This document shows positions 4,283 through 52,843 of a DNA stretch of 52,843 nucleotides, piece by piece. The stretch is taken from the IMG/VR virus record IMGVR_UViG_3300050166_000172, positions 1 through 52,843 of that record. The stretch is one strand, 5' to 3'. Source of the stretch: a virus (lineage: Duplodnaviria; Caudoviricetes). Both the position numbers and the translations under genes were made by a program. The number at the start of each line of letters is the position of its first letter. The stretch's first letter is position 1. Under the pieces are notes generated by a model. It was not told the origin of the DNA. It ran no database searches and saw nothing but the letters and a program-made list of their open reading frames with translations.

Positions 4283-4551
4283 TGAAAAATTTTATCAGTC
4301 AAATTATTAAAAAAGTAAATCGTTTGTTTTCTTCTGAAAAAGTAGATGAAAACATAATTAAAGTAAATGTGTTATTAAAAATTTGCTTTGAAAATAGAGA
4401 GGTTTTAGATGCAATTATAACTTTTAAAAAGTTTGAACAGGCGTTTGAACAAGAATTGAAAAAAAGAAACTTAGATGCTTTAGAAGTAAGCGCAGACTGT
4501 GAGGGATATTTTCACAGAAAATCAAAAAAATTAAATCAAAACTATAAATAA
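4282..4551 (+). CDS. Hypothetical protein
   Basis: TAATG coupling with previous ORF. Confidence 0.6.
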   Translation: MKNFISQIIKKVNRLFSSEKVDENIIKVNVLLKICFENREVLDAIITFKKFEQAFEQELKKRNLDALEVSADCEGYFHRKSKKLNQNYK

Positions 4552-4552
4552 T

Positions 4553-4768
4553 ATGAAAAAGTTAGTATTACTGGCAGTTTTAGCTTTATCGGTTAGCTGT
4601 TCAAAAGATGATGATAATTGCGATCAAAAAGCAAGCGAAATTAATGCTTACTACGATCAGCAAATTCAATATGTAATTAGTAACCCAGACCCTTGGGGGG
4701 TTAATTATAATCAAATTTCTCTTTTAAACCAGGAGAGAAATAAAAAATTACAAAACGCTTGTAATTAA
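4553..4768 (+). CDS. Small lipoprotein
   Basis: Lipoprotein signal MKKLVLLAVLALSVS-C followed by SKDDD, a Bacteroidetes export-like signal. Confidence 0.75.
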   Translation: MKKLVLLAVLALSVSCSKDDDNCDQKASEINAYYDQQIQYVISNPDPWGVNYNQISLLNQERNKKLQNACN

Positions 4769-4844
4769 TTCGCAGAAATAAAAAAACCCAATGCTCTAAC
4801 ATTGGGGAAAACAAAAATTTTAATTATCAGAAAAAAACAAAATT

Positions 4845-6875
4845 ATGAAAAAATTTTTTATTAAGAGTTTATCTCTTACGAATTTTAAAGGAATCAAAAA
4901 TTTACAATTAGATTTTGAAGAAGAAACAGATATTTTCGGAGCAAATGGAACTGGAAAAACAACGTTTGCTGATGCTTTTACTTGGTTGCTTTTTGGAAAA
5001 GATACTTCCGATAGAAAAGATTTTGAAATTAAAACATTAGACGCTAATGGTAAAGTAATTCCAATGATAGACCACGAGGTATATGCTTCGCTATTTGTAG
5101 ATAATGAACCGCTAACCATCAAACGTGTTTTAAAAGAGAAATGGGTTCAAAAACGTGGAGAAGAGGAAAAGGAGTTTTCAGGAAATGTAACAGAGTTATA
5201 TTGGAATGAAGTGCCAATGTCGGTAACAGAATTTACTAAAAAAGTAAATGATGTATTAAACGAACAGGTTTTCAAAATGATAACCTCTCCTACTTACTTT
5301 AATTCAATTAAATGGCAAGACAGAAGAAACCTTTTGATAGATATTTTTGGCGAGTTTTCAAATGAAGATGTGGCCAGAGGAAATTCGGCTTTTGAAAATC
5401 TACTTGCTAAACTAACGCAAGGTAAAACGCTTGAAGAATATAAGTCGCAAATCTTAGCTTCAATCAAAAAAGCAAAAGAAGATTTAAAAAATATTCCAGC
5501 AAGAATTGATGAAGTTTTTAGAGGTAAGCCAGAAGATGTGAATTTTGAAGTTCTTGAAAAAGAATTAGAATCAAAAAATTCAGAATTAAAAAAAGTAGAT
5601 GATTTGATTAATAATACTAATCTATCAATTGAATCACAACTTAAGGAAATCAATGATAAAAAATTAAAAATCAGTAATTTAAAAACTGAAATTTCAATTA
5701 TAGAAGCCAATGCAAAAACAGAAGCTTCAGAACGATTGAAACCTGATACTTCTAAAGTAGATGCTTTGCAAAGAAATTTAACTGCTAAAAAGCAAGAATT
5801 AGCCACTTACGAAAGTTCCCTTAAAACATTATCAGGTAAACTTAACGATTTAGATCAATCAAAAACTTCATTAGAGCAAAAGATTGTAGATGCGAGAAAC
5901 GATTGGAACGTTGAAAATGCAAAACAAATCACTTTCAATGATAATGACTTCCACTGCCCTACTTGTAAAAGAGAATTTGAAAGTGGCAATGTAGATGCTA
6001 AAAAAACAGAATTAACCAATTCGTTTAACCAAAGTAAGCAAAAAAAACTTGCTGAAATTTCTGCAAAAGGAAAATCATTAACTGCAGAAAAAATCAACAC
6101 AGAAAATGAAATAACTGGTATTTCGGAAAGAATTAAAAATGGCAAAATAGTAGTTGATGGATTAAAAACAGAAATTGGAAATATTGAATTTTCAATAAAA
6201 GAAACTGAAAACCCAGCAACAGAAAATTCAGAATTAACACCAGAGTTACTTTACGAATCAATTCTTTCTTTAAATCCAGATTATAAATCAAAAAAATCTG
6301 AATTGGAACAATTAGAAGCAAATCCGGTGCAAGATATTTCAATTGATAATTCAGAATTAATTGAAAAGAAAAGAATATTTCAATCAGAAATTGATGCGAT
6401 TAAAACACAGCTTCAAAACAAAGTTTTAATTGAAGCTGCTGATAAGCGAATTTCTGAATTGAAAGCAGAACAATCTACTTTAACACAACAAATTGCAAAC
6501 GTTGAAAAAGAGCATTTTGTAATTGAAAATTTCATCAAAGCCAAAGTAGATGCTTTAGAGCAAGTGGTTAATTCAAAATTTAAATATGTGAAGTTCAAAA
6601 TGTTTGACGAGCAAATTAATGGAGGGTTAAAAGAAACTTGCGAAGCAACGATAAACGGAGTGCCTTACTCAGATGCAAATACTGCATCTAGAATTAATGC
6701 TGGTTTGGATATTATAAATGTCCTTTCAGAATATTACCAAATGTCTGCACCAATATTTATTGACAATGCAGAAAGCGTTCACAGTTTGATAGAAACAAAT
6801 AGCCAAATAATAAAATTGGTGGTTTCAGAAGAAGCTAAAAAGCTAACAGTATTTTATTCAGAAGCAGTAGCGTAA
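4845..6875 (+). CDS. Rad50/SbcC-like AAA ATPase
   Basis: Walker A GANGTGKT, long coiled coil with CPTC zinc hook, Walker B IFIDNAE. Confidence 0.9.
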   Translation: MKKFFIKSLSLTNFKGIKNLQLDFEEETDIFGANGTGKTTFADAFTWLLFGKDTSDRKDFEIKTLDANGKVIPMIDHEVYASLFVDNEPLTIKRVLKEKWVQKRGEEEKEFSGNVTELYWNEVPMSVTEFTKKVNDVLNEQVFKMITSPTYFNSIKWQDRRNLLIDIFGEFSNEDVARGNSAFENLLAKLTQGKTLEEYKSQILASIKKAKEDLKNIPARIDEVFRGKPEDVNFEVLEKELESKNSELKKVDDLINNTNLSIESQLKEINDKKLKISNLKTEISIIEANAKTEASERLKPDTSKVDALQRNLTAKKQELATYESSLKTLSGKLNDLDQSKTSLEQKIVDARNDWNVENAKQITFNDNDFHCPTCKREFESGNVDAKKTELTNSFNQSKQKKLAEISAKGKSLTAEKINTENEITGISERIKNGKIVVDGLKTEIGNIEFSIKETENPATENSELTPELLYESILSLNPDYKSKKSELEQLEANPVQDISIDNSELIEKKRIFQSEIDAIKTQLQNKVLIEAADKRISELKAEQSTLTQQIANVEKEHFVIENFIKAKVDALEQVVNSKFKYVKFKMFDEQINGGLKETCEATINGVPYSDANTASRINAGLDIINVLSEYYQMSAPIFIDNAESVHSLIETNSQIIKLVVSEEAKKLTVFYSEAVA

Positions 6876-9051: not shown

Positions 9052-9528
9052 ATGGAAACATTAGAAATTAGTAAGGCAAACGCCTTGAAAGCACACAAAG
9101 ATGCAAATACTAAAGGTAAATCACTTTTAGAAAACTTATTTGGAAAAAAATTTTTCTTAAAAGACATAAAAGACAGAATAAGCTGTTTTGATGATGTTTT
9201 AAAAGAAAATGGTACTACAAGAGAAGAATTTGAAAAATCATGTAAAGATTTAGATCCTGACGAAATTGCTTATAAAATGGCAAAATTAGTATGCCTTGTT
9301 TATAATGAAGGTTGGATTCCAGACTGGAATAATAGTAATGAATACAAATATTACCCGTGGTTTGAAATGGGTTCCTCTTCGGGCGTCGGTTTTTCGTACT
9401 ACGGCTGCGATTACTGGCTTTCGGATTCGAGTGTCGGCTCGCGCCTTTGCTTTAAATCTTCTGATTTAGCAAAACACGCTGGTAAACTTTTTGAACAAGA
9501 AATTTATAAACCATTATTCACAATTTAA
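9052..9528 (+). CDS. DGR target protein 1
   Basis: Contains VR1; WIPDW..KYYPWF...VGSRLCF; paralog of next gene. Confidence 0.9.
   Translation: METLEISKANALKAHKDANTKGKSLLENLFGKKFFLKDIKDRISCFDDVLKENGTTREEFEKSCKDLDPDEIAYKMAKLVCLVYNEGWIPDWNNSNEYKYYPWFEMGSSSGVGFSYYGCDYWLSDSSVGSRLCFKSSDLAKHAGKLFEQEIYKPLFTI
9370..9450 (+). repeat. DGR variable repeat VR1
   Basis: 81 bp, 15 mismatches to TR, all at TR adenines. Confidence 0.96.
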
Positions 9529-9540
9529 TATATAAAAATT

Positions 9541-9915
9541 ATGTATACAAAAATTAAAACATTTGAAGATGCTTGTGTTAAAGAAAATCTTGATCCTAAT
9601 ACGGTAATTCCTGATTTTTCATTATTCCCAGAAAAAGATAGACAAGCAATGATTGACCATGCTAAATTGATTATTATAAACAAAGCAATAAATGAAGACT
9701 GGATTCCTGATTGGTTAAATTATAACCAAACTAAATATTACCCGTGGTTTGAAATGGGTTCCTCTTCGGGCGTCGGTTTTTCGTGCGACGACTACGTTGA
9801 CTGGAGTACGAGTTCGAATGTCGGCTCGCGCCTTTGCTTTGAAAGTAGAGAAAAGGCAATTTATGCAGGCAAAACTTTTATAGAGTTGTATAAATCATAC
9901 TTTGTAAAAGAATAA
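9541..9915 (+). CDS. DGR target protein 2
   Basis: Contains VR2; WIPDW..KYYPWF...VGSRLCF. Confidence 0.9.
   Translation: MYTKIKTFEDACVKENLDPNTVIPDFSLFPEKDRQAMIDHAKLIIINKAINEDWIPDWLNYNQTKYYPWFEMGSSSGVGFSCDDYVDWSTSSNVGSRLCFESREKAIYAGKTFIELYKSYFVKE
9757..9837 (+). repeat. DGR variable repeat VR2
   Basis: 81 bp, 12 mismatches to TR, all at TR adenines. Confidence 0.96.
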
Positions 9916-9920
9916 AAAAA

Positions 9921-10110
9921 AAGGTTGTGTGGTGTAGTTGCTGTAGTTCCTCTTCAGGCGTCAGTTTTTCGTACAACGACTACGATAACTGGAATACGAA
10001 TTCGAATGTCAGCTCGCACCTTAGCAAAAAAATAAACACCACAGACCTTGCTTACATAGCAAAAAATAACAATTTTAAAAGGTTCGTTAGTAAATAATTG
10101 AAAACGAACC
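9921..10110 (+). ncRNA. Putative structured DGR template RNA (TR plus pairing flanks)
   Basis: 9921-9935 pairs with 10036-10049 around TR; hairpins at 10048-10062 and 10081-10110. Confidence 0.6.
9945..10025 (+). repeat. DGR template repeat (TR)
   Basis: Intergenic, AAC/AAT-rich copy with 21 adenines, just upstream of RT. Confidence 0.96.
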
Positions 10111-10125
10111 ATTAAAGCAAAGGCA

Positions 10126-11088
10126 ATGAAAAGAATAGGAAATTTATATCAAAAAATAATATCGAAAGAAAATCTTTTAGCTTCAGAACTAAAAGCAAGA
10201 AAAGGTAAGTCATTTCAATATGGTGTTCGTGTTTTTGATAAAAACAAATTGGAACTTATTGATCAACTTTATAATGAATTGAAAAGTAAAAATTTTAAAA
10301 CTTCTCAATACACAACTTTTACTGTTTTTGAACCTAAAGAAAGATTAGTTTTTAGACTTCCATACTTTCCAGACAGAATATTACATCATGCAATTATGAA
10401 TATTATGGAGCCTTTATTTACAAAATGGTTTACAAATGATACCTATAGCTCAATTAAAGGAAAAGGCATTCATAATGCAGCCAATAACTTAAAAAAAGCA
10501 TTAAAAGACAAATTAAATACAAAGTATTGTTTAAAGCTAGACATTGTAAAGTTTTATCCAAACATAAATCACAATGTTTTAAAGCAACAACTTCGAAAAA
10601 AAATCAAGGACCAGGATTTACTTTGGTTATTAGATGAAATTATTGAGAGTGCTGAAGGATTACCAATTGGCAACTATTTAAGTCAATATTTTGCTAACTT
10701 TTATTTAACCAGTTTTGACCACTGGATAAAAGAAGAAAAGCAAATTAAATATTACTTCAGATATGCTGATGATATTGTAATTCTATCACAATCAAAAGAG
10801 CATTTACACCAAGTTTTATCAGATATTAAACTGTATTTAAATGATAATTTAAAACTTCAAATTAAAAATAATTATCAAATATTTCCAGTTAAAGCTCGGG
10901 GAATTGATTTTGTTGGATATGTTTTTTACCATACACACACATTGCTACGAAAATCAATTAAAAAAAGATTTGCAAAAGCAATATCAAAAAAGAAAAATAA
11001 CCAAACAATAGCGGCTTACAATGGTTGGACAAAACATTGTAACGCAAAACACTTACTTAAAAAATTATTACCTAATGAACAATTTTAA
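10126..11088 (+). CDS. DGR reverse transcriptase
   Basis: LKLDIVKFYPNI, GLPIGNYLSQ (DGR-type IGxxxSQ), YFRYADD, GIDFVGY; 320 aa, no maturase/endonuclease domain. Confidence 0.95.
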   Translation: MKRIGNLYQKIISKENLLASELKARKGKSFQYGVRVFDKNKLELIDQLYNELKSKNFKTSQYTTFTVFEPKERLVFRLPYFPDRILHHAIMNIMEPLFTKWFTNDTYSSIKGKGIHNAANNLKKALKDKLNTKYCLKLDIVKFYPNINHNVLKQQLRKKIKDQDLLWLLDEIIESAEGLPIGNYLSQYFANFYLTSFDHWIKEEKQIKYYFRYADDIVILSQSKEHLHQVLSDIKLYLNDNLKLQIKNNYQIFPVKARGIDFVGYVFYHTHTLLRKSIKKRFAKAISKKKNNQTIAAYNGWTKHCNAKHLLKKLLPNEQF

Positions 11089-11371
11089 AGATTTTGATAT
11101 TAAGCCAGTGATAACAAATTTTGTTGGTGAAAAAATTACTACTCAAAAAATACTTGATAAAGAAATTATTGTAATTGACTTCAAAATTTTGCCATCAAAA
11201 TTTGACGGAAAAGGAGATAGATTAGACTTGCAAATTGAGTATAGAGATGAACCAAGAGTTATTTTTACAGGTGGTAAATACCTAATACAAACAATAGAAA
11301 AAGTACCAAAAGATAAGTTTCCATTTAAAACAAAAATAACTAAAAATGGAGAGCATTTGGAATTTACTTAA
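11075..11371 (+). CDS. Small RT-coupled protein, candidate DGR accessory factor
   Basis: ATG at 11075 overlaps RT 3' end by 14 nt; beta-strand-like pattern, FPFKTKI motif. Confidence 0.7.
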   Translation: MNNFKDFDIKPVITNFVGEKITTQKILDKEIIVIDFKILPSKFDGKGDRLDLQIEYRDEPRVIFTGGKYLIQTIEKVPKDKFPFKTKITKNGEHLEFT

Positions 11372-28289: not shown

Positions 28290-28370
28290 GGGGAAGTAGC
28301 TCAGTTGGCTAGAGCAGATTTGAGATGATATCAATAAATAGAGTCGCTGGTTCGATTCCAGCCTTTTCCA
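28290..28370 (+). tRNA. tRNA-like element (pseudo-tRNA, anticodon unassignable)
   Basis: Acceptor GGGGAAG/CTTTTCC, D-arm GCTC-AGTTGGCTA-GAGC, T-arm GCTGG-TTCGATT-CCAGC; anticodon/variable region 29 nt and non-canonical. Confidence 0.65.
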
Positions 28371-28563
28371 CAAGTATTATATACCGTTCAAGGAGATAAG
28401 CCTCCACATGTAATCTTTAGTGTTGTATTCATGCATGATGTTTGGTTTATAGATTAGCAAATAGAAAAAATGAGCGTGTAGCGTTACTATAATCTGTTTT
28501 ATGGGTAAATTTTAAGCTTATAGTTATAAAAAACATTTTTGAACGGTATTTCTTTAAAAAAGT

Positions 28564-51682: not shown

Positions 51683-52843
51683 TTAAAGTGCTGGTGAATT
51701 TTCTAAAATATTTTTTCTGTGGACTTCTTTCACAACTTTAGCATATTTTTCAGTCATTAATTTAGAAGTATGGCCATAAAGTTCACGTAAACTATCTAAC
51801 TCTAAACCTGCTAAAATTTTTCTGTTAGCTCCTAAGTGTTTCATAGCATATAAATTCATTTGAATTCCTAAGCCTTTTTTAACTAAATTTTCCCATCTAC
51901 GAGTTGCAGTGTCGCGATTCATTTTAGTTGGTCCTGGAATAAAATCATTAAATTTTCCAACATTACCTTTTCCAGGATCTCTAAAACTACCAAATAAATA
52001 AAAATTTTTTGGAAGTATTTCAAAATCTAATTTATAAAAATACTCTTTTAAATGATTATTTATCGGCACTATCCTTTTTTTGTTCGTTTTTGTAATTGAT
52101 GCAGGAAGAACAATTTCTGAATTTTGTAAATCAATCATATCTAAAGTTAATTTTGTAATTTCTTCTGGACGAATTCCTGTGTGAAAAATTGTTAAGCAAA
52201 AAACCCAAAAATTAAAATGTTTACCTTCTAAAGCATTTTTTATAATTTCTATATCTTCAATTGATGCTGGAGCATTAGCATCGCTTTCAGTAACTGGCAA
52301 ATTTTTAACGTTATGCGCTGGATTAGTTTCTATTATATCCCATTGAATAAGCTCACTTAAAATGGCCTTTAAATGATTAAGGTGTTTGTTGTATGCATTA
52401 TTAGACCAATTTCGCTGCTCCTTAGCTTTTTCAATAATTAGTTTTATATGTATTCTTTTTACTTCAATTATTGGAAGTTGTACAAAATTAAGTGATTTAA
52501 TAGATTCTTTTACAAATTTAATTGTTCCGTTATAACCAGATATGGTTTTCGGACTTAAATTTGCTTTCTTTTTATCCATTGCAAAAAACAAAGCTTCAAT
52601 CAATGATAAATCACTTTGTTTTTGAATTACTTCAGGAACTAATGGATTCCATCCTTCTTTTAATTTTTGATGCAAAGCCTCTTTAAGTAAATTAGCTTCT
52701 TTTTCACGTTTTTTGTAATCATCAATGTAATTTATTCCATATTTAAAACGGAATAGTTTTTTGTCATATCTAAAATAGACAAACCATGATTTTTTTAGGT
52801 CATCATATTTGACAACCTTGGGGATAGTGTAGATTGATTTCAT
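51683..52843 (-). CDS. int: Prophage tyrosine integrase
   Basis: HTGIRPEE (R), TKT (K), YAMKH, LYGHTS..MTEKY. Confidence 0.9.
   Translation of the reverse strand: MKSIYTIPKVVKYDDLKKSWFVYFRYDKKLFRFKYGINYIDDYKKREKEANLLKEALHQKLKEGWNPLVPEVIQKQSDLSLIEALFFAMDKKKANLSPKTISGYNGTIKFVKESIKSLNFVQLPIIEVKRIHIKLIIEKAKEQRNWSNNAYNKHLNHLKAILSELIQWDIIETNPAHNVKNLPVTESDANAPASIEDIEIIKNALEGKHFNFWVFCLTIFHTGIRPEEITKLTLDMIDLQNSEIVLPASITKTNKKRIVPINNHLKEYFYKLDFEILPKNFYLFGSFRDPGKGNVGKFNDFIPGPTKMNRDTATRRWENLVKKGLGIQMNLYAMKHLGANRKILAGLELDSLRELYGHTSKLMTEKYAKVVKEVHRKNILENSPAL

Follow-up and report, generated by a model that had tools for sequence, protein, structure and literature searches.

Among the described systems closest to the element considered here, the diversity-generating retroelement (DGR) of Bordetella phage BPP-1 (mtd, avd, TR, brt) transfers sequence with adenine-specific changes from a template repeat (TR), located directly upstream of the reverse transcriptase (RT) gene, into a variable repeat (VR). 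A survey of 372 DGRs found avd in 74% and two targets in about 13% of the elements, with 29% carrying no accessory gene (architecture A), and described a Lineage 3 without avd, in which retrohoming probably follows a variant that does not depend on Avd (Wu 2018, PMC5758913). In this report, we examine a 2.3-kb cassette at positions 9052–11371 of the IMG/VR virus record IMGVR_UViG_3300050166_000172, a complete provirus record of 52,843 nucleotides (the window), and conclude that it is very probably a functional DGR carried by a temperate prophage of the siphovirus type, whose host resembles Flavobacterium. In order, and all on the plus strand, the cassette comprises two target genes, T1 (containing VR1) and T2 (containing VR2), a structured TR RNA, an RT gene, and a 98-codon open reading frame (ORF98), set within the early recombination and replication region of the prophage.

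The cassette family is already represented in the survey. Entry no. 120 of its table, Galbibacter sp. ck-I2-15 (NZ_AMSG01000002.1), is listed with the order TG-TG-TR-RT, architecture A1, Lineage 3 and VR class CLec3, together with the remark that its target aligns poorly to other CLec3 targets (Wu 2018, PMC5758913). The same locus, recovered here as L060 in a search seeded with ORF98, contains T1, T2, a TR with two A-biased VRs (a TR/VR pair being termed A-biased where at least 80% of mismatches fall at A), an RT 65.6% identical to that of the window, and ORF98; the family has thus been catalogued before, with no accessory gene listed for it, and the window element is a new member of the catalogued Avd-less lineage. 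In the accessible text of the survey, we found no mention of ORF98, of RNA structure, of the early-region setting or of activity on two targets. What the present locus adds to the catalogue is a conserved ORF98 resembling an oligonucleotide/oligosaccharide-binding (OB) fold and coupled to the RT, covarying RNA around the TR, and the consistent early-region setting of two small diversified targets, the functions of these parts being predicted. A six-frame search of the whole 52.8-kb record gave no match to Avd (PF05635) at E<=1, and no ORF lies between T2 and the TR; because Lineage 3 lacks avd, this absence does not exclude membership among DGRs.

The DGR identity is carried by five features: a DGR-type RT, TR/VR mismatches confined to adenines, VRs that lie within genes, a non-coding TR beside the RT, and A-restricted variation among relatives. 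The TR (9945–10025), which holds 21 adenines in 81 nucleotides, aligns without gaps to VR1 (9370–9450, codons 107–133 of the 158 in T1) with 15 mismatches and to VR2 (9757–9837, within T2) with 12, and all 27 mismatches are at TR adenines. The hypergeometric chance that every mismatch falls on one of the 21 adenine sites is 6.7e-12 for VR1 and 4.2e-9 for VR2. Moreover, VR1 and VR2 differ from one another at 12 positions, all of them opposite TR adenines, in keeping with one template serving two independently mutagenised targets. A scan of both strands of the whole window, which allowed mismatches at A and up to eight elsewhere, revealed no remote VR or further copy of the repeat beyond these three.

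The template is constructed in a manner that tolerates extensive change. No A-to-N substitution in any TR codon can produce a stop codon, and the 15 central adenines (9973–10006) fall into five codons with four possible residues each and five codons with 15 each, so that, by arithmetic on the TR codon table, each target could reach 4^15 DNA variants and ~7.8e8 peptides. The coordinates, the mismatch counts, the independent mutagenesis of the two targets, the protection from stop codons and the 4^15 DNA variants had been put forward in the initial annotation of the DNA, and each was reproduced here. Among 32 distinct VRs from 17 sources, the central 15 adenines are replaced by all four bases, and the flanking adenines behave differently: those at 9945, 9956, 9963, 10011 and 10018 read G, and that at 10023 reads T, in nearly every VR. 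The last 15 nucleotides of the repeat (10011–10025) therefore hold fixed TR/VR differences, and within them the VR carries a 10-nt block made up entirely of G and C. In described DGRs, an initiation of mutagenic homing (IMH) element is located at the 3' end of the VR and a non-identical IMH* at the 3' end of the TR, with a GC-rich start (Wu 2018, PMC5758913); the fixed differences and GC block of the window fit what is expected of IMH and IMH* at the sequence level, and BPP-1 likewise has a GC-rich 3' block in its VR that differs from the TR.

Folding of the sequence downstream of the VRs gave z-scores of -1.74 and -0.36, providing no significant GC-rich hairpin; such hairpin repeats follow the VR in only 34% of DGRs (Wu 2018, PMC5758913). 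The comparison with BPP-1 made in the initial annotation needs qualification: the identity as a DGR stands, but several parts differ, in that the window cassette has no Avd, two targets instead of one, and targets that are small early-region proteins rather than a tail-fibre protein, and in that its VRs stop 25 codons short of the end of the gene with no significant hairpin after them. Two further observations concern the repeats. At position 10022 the window TR has T, as do its VRs, and contigs of runs X3, X5 and X7 have G; the equivalent position is G in 25 of 32 TR/VR pairs of related loci, constituting a fixed non-adenine difference within the IMH*-like block. Additionally, T1 (9343–9369) and T2 (9730–9756) are identical in DNA over an extra 27 nt upstream of the TR-homologous part, encoding KYYPWFEMG, a stretch to which the TR has no homology and which could reflect gene conversion between paralogs or strong selection.

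The RT gene (10126–11088; 320 aa, pI 9.8) is intact and encodes the motifs IGNYLSQ and YADD, as the initial annotation had read it. The sequence (I/L/V)GxxxSQ at motif 4 is a signature of DGR RTs. The protein matches Pfam RVT_1 (E 2.7e-20) and the PHROG reverse-transcriptase family phrog_1423 (E 3.6e-123), and residues I181–Q187 and Y213-A214-D215 are invariant across 27 relatives. Its best solved relative is the 328-residue chain 8ub7_A (E 4.1e-43), followed by a group II intron RT (5e-16); the PDB names the former merely 'Reverse transcriptase', and we take 8ub7 to be the BPP-1 RT-Avd-RNA particle, in agreement with the chain length and with the residue numbering given below. A literature text search for '8UB7' found no paper. 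In the alignment, D138 of 8ub7_A is paired with D139 of the window RT, IGSLTSQ with IGNYLSQ and YMDD with YADD, bringing the catalytic Asp, the IGxxxSQ motif and the YxDD motif into register. The active-site residues of the BPP-1 RT are given as D138, D215, D216, I181, G182 and Q187 (bioRxiv 10.1101/2023.10.23.563531), and D138, D215 and D216 of 8ub7_A fit that numbering.

An RT beside repeats could, in principle, come from a retron, a group II intron or a defence system that happens to lie near ordinary paralogous sequence, and the NCBIfam and PADLOC searches did return sub-threshold or generic matches of the RT to group II, Drt3a, retron and UG families. None of the NCBIfam models reached its cut-off, whereas 8ub7_A leads the next solved structure by 27 orders of magnitude in E-value, and neither the adenine-only mismatches, with the chance probabilities given above, nor the A-restricted variation among near-identical relatives (see below) agrees with simple paralogy. 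Contradicted by these results, this explanation was rejected, and we assign it a vanishingly small probability. The RT is thus read as that of a DGR.

Relatives of the cassette offer a view of its activity. A T2-seeded search of viral contigs yielded 52 loci. An RT accompanied by A-biased TR/VR pairs is present in 47 of them, with two VRs in 40, three VRs in four and a single VR in three; the remaining five have no RT in the stretch fetched. Six of the loci are 98.7–99.4% identical over 2061 aligned columns and have identical TRs in all six cases. Their 40 variable columns are distributed very unevenly: 29 are VR sites opposite TR adenines (15 in VR1 and 14 in VR2), one is a non-A site of a VR, and ten lie outside the VRs, five of these ten belonging to a single indel. 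The adenine-specific variation that the initial annotation had proposed to look for is thus present among relatives, and at the level of aligned sequences the six near-identical loci are direct comparative evidence that this type of cassette diversifies both of its targets. For the lineage of the window itself, the comparison rests on assembled Logan contigs. Differences from the window at 10 or more VR positions are seen in contigs of runs X3 and X7, both obtained in other studies, and all ten among the differences listed are opposite TR adenines (9400, 9404, 9413, 9419, 9421 and 9425 in VR1; 9799, 9805, 9806 and 9812 in VR2); one of these contigs (record 29), spanning T2 and the RT, carries 25 differences in 1334 nt. 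Judged from these alignments, recent or ongoing adenine-directed diversification is evident for the family and, in part, for the window's own lineage.

A cassette which was active in ancestors, with this copy no longer diversifying its targets, has to be weighed as well. Evidence on variation comes from contigs rather than reads, and the contigs of run X1, from which the window may derive, contain no alternative VR at high depth, only 151-nt contigs at depth 2–3 with 11–25 differences that may derive from relatives; furthermore, two relatives (L048 and L049) have lost the TR, RT and ORF98. Such a recent relic is nevertheless quite improbable, considering that the RT, ORF98, both targets and all RNA stems of the window are intact, that TR/VR mismatches are confined to adenines and the other bases show no decay, and that VR1 and VR2 differ at 12 A-sites while close relatives elsewhere differ at A-sites in both VRs. 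A functional element remains the preferred reading.

The interval between the T2 stop and the RT start was aligned for 25 loci and contains a conserved RNA design. A 12-bp stem, P1 (9923–9935 with 10036–10047), displays compensatory changes at 9 of 12 pairs and has 97.7% of alignment cells paired; as it joins the upstream and downstream flanks, the TR sits in the loop of P1. One base past P1 begins the hairpin P2 (10049–10061), followed by an A-run (10062–10066) and by a later hairpin, P3 (10081–10110), directly upstream of the RT start, in which compensatory changes affect 4 of 6 outer and 2 of 2 inner pairs. Over all stems, 97.0% of cells are paired versus 42–46% in slid controls, compensatory changes occur at 17 of 23 pairs, and the covariation score is 0.659 compared with at most 0.158 in controls. 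In the window, the fold of 9916–10128 has a z-score of -3.77. This structured RNA was missed by the initial annotation, as was ORF98, although the latter ends exactly at the final coordinate of that annotation, 11371; the annotated TR, VRs and RT within 9052–11371 were correct.

Two described RNAs resemble this region. The Rfam motif RT-17 (RF03020; one of the RT-n motifs of Weinberg et al. 2017, PMC5737381) aligns over its full model to the spacer at 10044–10126 with 33.3 bits (E 7.5e-5), below the gathering score of 40.4; at the homologous site, 4 of 17 related loci do exceed this score (41.4–43.6 bits). The window copy is therefore termed RT-17-like rather than a curated member; going by the model match, its spacer RNA resembles RT-17, and the model differs in excluding the P1 stem that encloses the TR. 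In BPP-1, the 'cPRT Stop' is formed where the segment preceding the TR pairs with the spacer; a stem-loop and unpaired adenosines come next, and the element has been predicted in 207 Avd-containing DGRs (bioRxiv 10.1101/2023.10.23.563531). The same layout is found in the window, with the P1 duplex around the TR, the P2 stem-loop directly after it and then the A-run; by analogy it resembles the BPP-1 arrangement, and a function in stopping synthesis or positioning the RNA is putative.

Taken together, these parts suggest a mechanism in which the RT would reverse-transcribe an RNA containing the TR and insert a base at random wherever it meets one of the 15 central adenines. By analogy with the 'cPRT Stop' of BPP-1, P1, P2 and the A-run would bound the synthesis of complementary DNA (cDNA) and position the RNA on the RT, and the cDNA would then be exchanged for the middle section of either VR. 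Direction would come from the GC-rich block at the 3' end of each VR, which differs from the TR at fixed positions and would serve as IMH, and ORF98 would probably be made by translational coupling to the RT.

ORF98 (11075–11371; 98 aa, pI 8.8) begins 14 nt before the end of the RT gene, and this arrangement is widely kept. Of the 45 loci with an evaluable RT end, 42 have an ORF of 98–105 aa that overlaps the stop codon of the RT, and one of the three misses (L015) does have an ORF98 homolog by tblastn (L075, on the same contig). Searches seeded with ORF98 itself led back to the same cassette: the six bacterial-genome loci recovered (Vicingus, Chryseolinea, Leptobacterium, a Cyclobacteriaceae metagenome-assembled genome (MAG), a Patescibacteria-labelled MAG and Galbibacter) each carry T genes together with A-biased TR/VR pairs, and in each the RT runs up to the start of ORF98. 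Likewise, all 38 ORF98-seeded viral loci, 21 of them on contigs new to the analysis, have an RT match upstream. Where 1000 nt or more of upstream sequence was present (36 loci), this match stops no more than 40 nt from ORF98 in 33, and T matches plus an A-biased pair are found in all 26 with at least 2400 nt. Flanking genes vary with the backbone, including a lambda-like recombination module, a Mu-like transposase with its ATPase, or a primase, and the overlap of ORF98 with the RT stop is kept throughout. In L048 and L049, a NUMOD4/HNH endonuclease gene takes the place of the TR and RT and of ORF98 except for its final 27 nt, with T1 and T2 retained. As an observation on these two loci, which are relatives of L030, the inserted gene (~4385–4960) is homing-endonuclease-like (Pfam E 5e-15 and 3e-8), and they represent a natural DGR-less version of the locus.

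The predicted structure of ORF98 provides a hint of its biochemistry. The AlphaFold2 (AF2) model has a predicted local distance difference test score (pLDDT) of 91.9 and the order beta1-3, helix, beta4-5, which fits the OB fold with its five strands and a helix between strands 3 and 4. Structural neighbours found by VIA are mainly single-stranded DNA-binding protein (SSB), PriB, RPA and other OB domains, at Z-scores of 4–6.6 only, and Z under 8 may reflect merely a common arrangement. No Pfam, NCBIfam or PADLOC family was matched; Foldseek against the PDB returned nothing at E<=0.001, tblastn against GenBank phages found nothing, and the 804 homologs are all unnamed and without Pfam domains. 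A predicted complex of RT and ORF98 scored 0.00, which is no evidence either way. We consider ORF98, on the basis of its association and modelled fold, a component of the cassette and a candidate helper; that it serves as a nucleic-acid-binding helper in place of Avd has, in our estimate, an even chance.

OB-fold SSB-like genes are common in phage replication regions, and ORF98 could be one of these, travelling beside the RT with no part in retrohoming in a lineage that needs no helper or uses a host factor. The placement of the Galbibacter member in A1, without an accessory gene, would agree with this (Wu 2018, PMC5758913), as would the crAss-like phages, whose DGR RTs (e.g. that of cr115_1, NC_055898.1) are 64–70% identical to the window RT in DNA over ~600 nt; in cr115_1, the RT is followed by a holin and not by ORF98. 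A T-family profile search found no protein in cr115_1, an empty result of such a search being uninformative, and crAss-like phage DGRs are described as associated with tail protein genes (PMC10136315). By contrast, an ordinary replication gene would not be expected to hold its overlap with the RT stop as flanking genes change between backbones, to have an RT upstream at every locus recovered through it (6 of 6 and 38 of 38), or to be lost jointly with the TR and RT in L048 and L049. A bystander role for ORF98 is, in our judgement, possible and somewhat doubtful.

The two targets are paralogs, T1 (9052–9528; 158 aa, pI 5.5) and T2 (9541–9915; 124 aa, pI 4.9) being 41–45% identical by tblastn, with T2 lacking ~35 N-terminal residues of T1. 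Both are acidic, have no hydrophobic N-terminus, and match phrog_11581, a family of unknown function (E 2.5e-19 and 3.9e-26). T1 has 564 homologs at E<=1e-3, of which the named ones are all 'hypothetical protein' from Flavobacterium and other Flavobacteriia, and an exhaustive profile search extends the T family to 4142 representative clusters, most of about 150–165 aa. Some members of 250–350 aa (P0243, P0244, P0247 and others) contain two matched stretches; they appear to be either tandem targets joined by fusion or pairs of genes predicted as a single one. In an alignment of 50 members, the variable columns fall into a single patch bounded by the conserved motifs FS and VGSRLCF. The AF2 model of T1 shows confident helices at 8–85 and 137–156 and a pLDDT <50 across the VR (108–130).

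Attempts to connect T1 with characterised proteins were largely negative. T1 matched no Pfam family, and a Pfam scan of the 50 family members at E<=10 found no family in more than three of them. Foldseek against the PDB gave no match at E<=0.001 and no C-type-lectin chain in its list; a wide VIA search likewise listed no C-type-lectin chain, its best hits (Z 4.6) being unrelated helical proteins, and a profile search of PDB sequences at E<=10 returned nothing relevant. Matches in BFVD were to uncharacterised phage proteins only and those in the ESM Atlas to hypothetical, mostly viral clusters only, with tblastn against GenBank phages giving one weak match in Bacteroides phage BT-TP2 (E 3e-5). 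Unannotated VR domains are reported as probable further variants of the C-type lectin (Roux 2021).

In the window, genes for an SbcC-like protein, RecT and a metallo-hydrolase lie upstream of T1 and T2, with NinB and a helicase downstream. At nine other loci (55 flanking ORFs), the annotated neighbours are RecT, a RecE-like exonuclease, a Mu-like transposase with its ATPase, a primase, a replication initiator and a pyrophosphatase, and none of the annotated flanking ORFs belongs to the PHROG tail category; one minus-strand flanking ORF has a fourth-ranked match to 'minor head protein and DNA pilot'. Based on these sequence features, T1 and T2 are most likely early-expressed cytoplasmic proteins of two parts, in which the conserved helical N-terminus would dock on an invariant partner and the ligand recognised by the 12-residue variable patch would itself vary. 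We consider a host factor likelier than a cell-surface receptor as that ligand, giving the host factor roughly equal chances of being right or wrong. By description only, BovT and BfiT of Bacteroides are similar, being comparatively small variable proteins with N-terminal alpha helices before a diversified head and located beside prophage genes (bioRxiv 10.1101/2024.11.15.621889).

T1 and T2 could instead be virion-associated accessories for receptor binding, docking on the tail through their conserved N-terminal helices. A constant N-terminus joined to a variable patch would suit such an adaptor, viral DGR targets are mostly tail proteins (Roux 2021), and the VRs of the Galbibacter member were assigned to the C-type-lectin class CLec3, with the poor alignment noted above (Wu 2018, PMC5758913). 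This is rather unlikely given the early recombination and replication neighbours in the window and at the nine other loci, a position at least 20 kb upstream of the window's tail genes, and the lack of any PHROG structural annotation on T1 and T2; early cytoplasmic proteins are the reading retained.

The organisation of the whole record agrees with a temperate phage. The window has a G+C content of ~30% and opens in a provirus layout with a minus-strand integrase, then a CI-like repressor on the minus strand. The next block runs rightward with, by PHROG matches, an SbcC-like ATPase, RecT, a metallo-hydrolase, the DGR, NinB, a helicase and replication genes, after which come the late genes for terminase, portal, capsid, tape measure, structural proteins, holin and endolysin. 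Tyrosine-integrase ORFs are found at both record ends (1–1248 and 51683–52843, both on the minus strand); the second could be part of an adjacent element, or the limits of the provirus may have been set too wide. A tRNA-like gene (28290–28371, plus strand; ARAGORN 'tRNA-???', anticodon (ga)) lies between a DNA-modification region and the terminase. Among the related loci, L059 (JBBTYS010000024.1) is a complete cassette with three VRs on a 36-kb contig from a MAG labelled 'Patescibacteria group'; the other named hosts are all Bacteroidota, and the label may reflect a binning error or a wider host range. Furthermore, L024 carries a Pistol ribozyme at 240–310 on the plus strand (RF02679, 65.1 bits versus a threshold of 34.5), ~3 kb upstream of its DGR.

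Several points weigh against the overall interpretation of a functional DGR with an early-region role and a helper of its own. Variation was seen between contigs and relatives and not within one population of this prophage, which bears on present activity, and the complete agreement of window-lineage VR positions with TR adenines (10 of 10) holds among the differences listed. No priming site was located, a by-eye search for a TR:primer duplex like that of BPP-1 yielding no convincing pairing, and the linker from the TR to the 3' strand of P1 is only 10 nt, so that, unlike in BPP-1, there is no room for a primer strand and an Avd-binding hairpin, which have no counterpart between the TR and the stop duplex. 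The spacer of the window falls under the RT-17 threshold. For ORF98, the proposed role draws on co-occurrence, on the way it overlaps the RT stop and on a fold match of modest strength, and cr115_1 has a related RT followed by a holin in place of ORF98. Finally, the role of the targets is deduced only from gene position, size, acidity and the absent N-terminal hydrophobic stretch, and the predominance of tail proteins among viral DGR targets (Roux 2021) points the other way.

Within the literature searched, no helper was named for the Avd-less lineage, and searches for Flavobacterium prophage DGRs, anti-defence DGRs and OB-fold accessory proteins found no paper on this cassette. A bolder proposal, unlikely to hold in full, is that Avd-less Lineage 3 DGRs of this cassette type have a helper in an OB-fold protein, ORF98, made jointly with the RT, which would substitute for Avd by binding the A-rich TR RNA or the single-stranded cDNA, or would pass the cDNA to the adjacent RecT and exonuclease recombination machinery of the phage, and that the targets would be early cytoplasmic adaptors, not receptor binders, with a variable patch that captures variable host factors, e.g. 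defence proteins.

The cassette bears on how phages diversify proteins and to what end. An Avd-less lineage must use a different variant of mutagenic retrohoming (Wu 2018, PMC5758913), for which ORF98 is a concrete candidate helper, and the window together with ~70 related loci also supplies a compact, covarying RNA design in a 2.3-kb cassette small enough to reconstitute. If it is true that small early-region proteins, and not tail fibres, are diversified here, the role of phage DGRs would extend beyond host-range switching.

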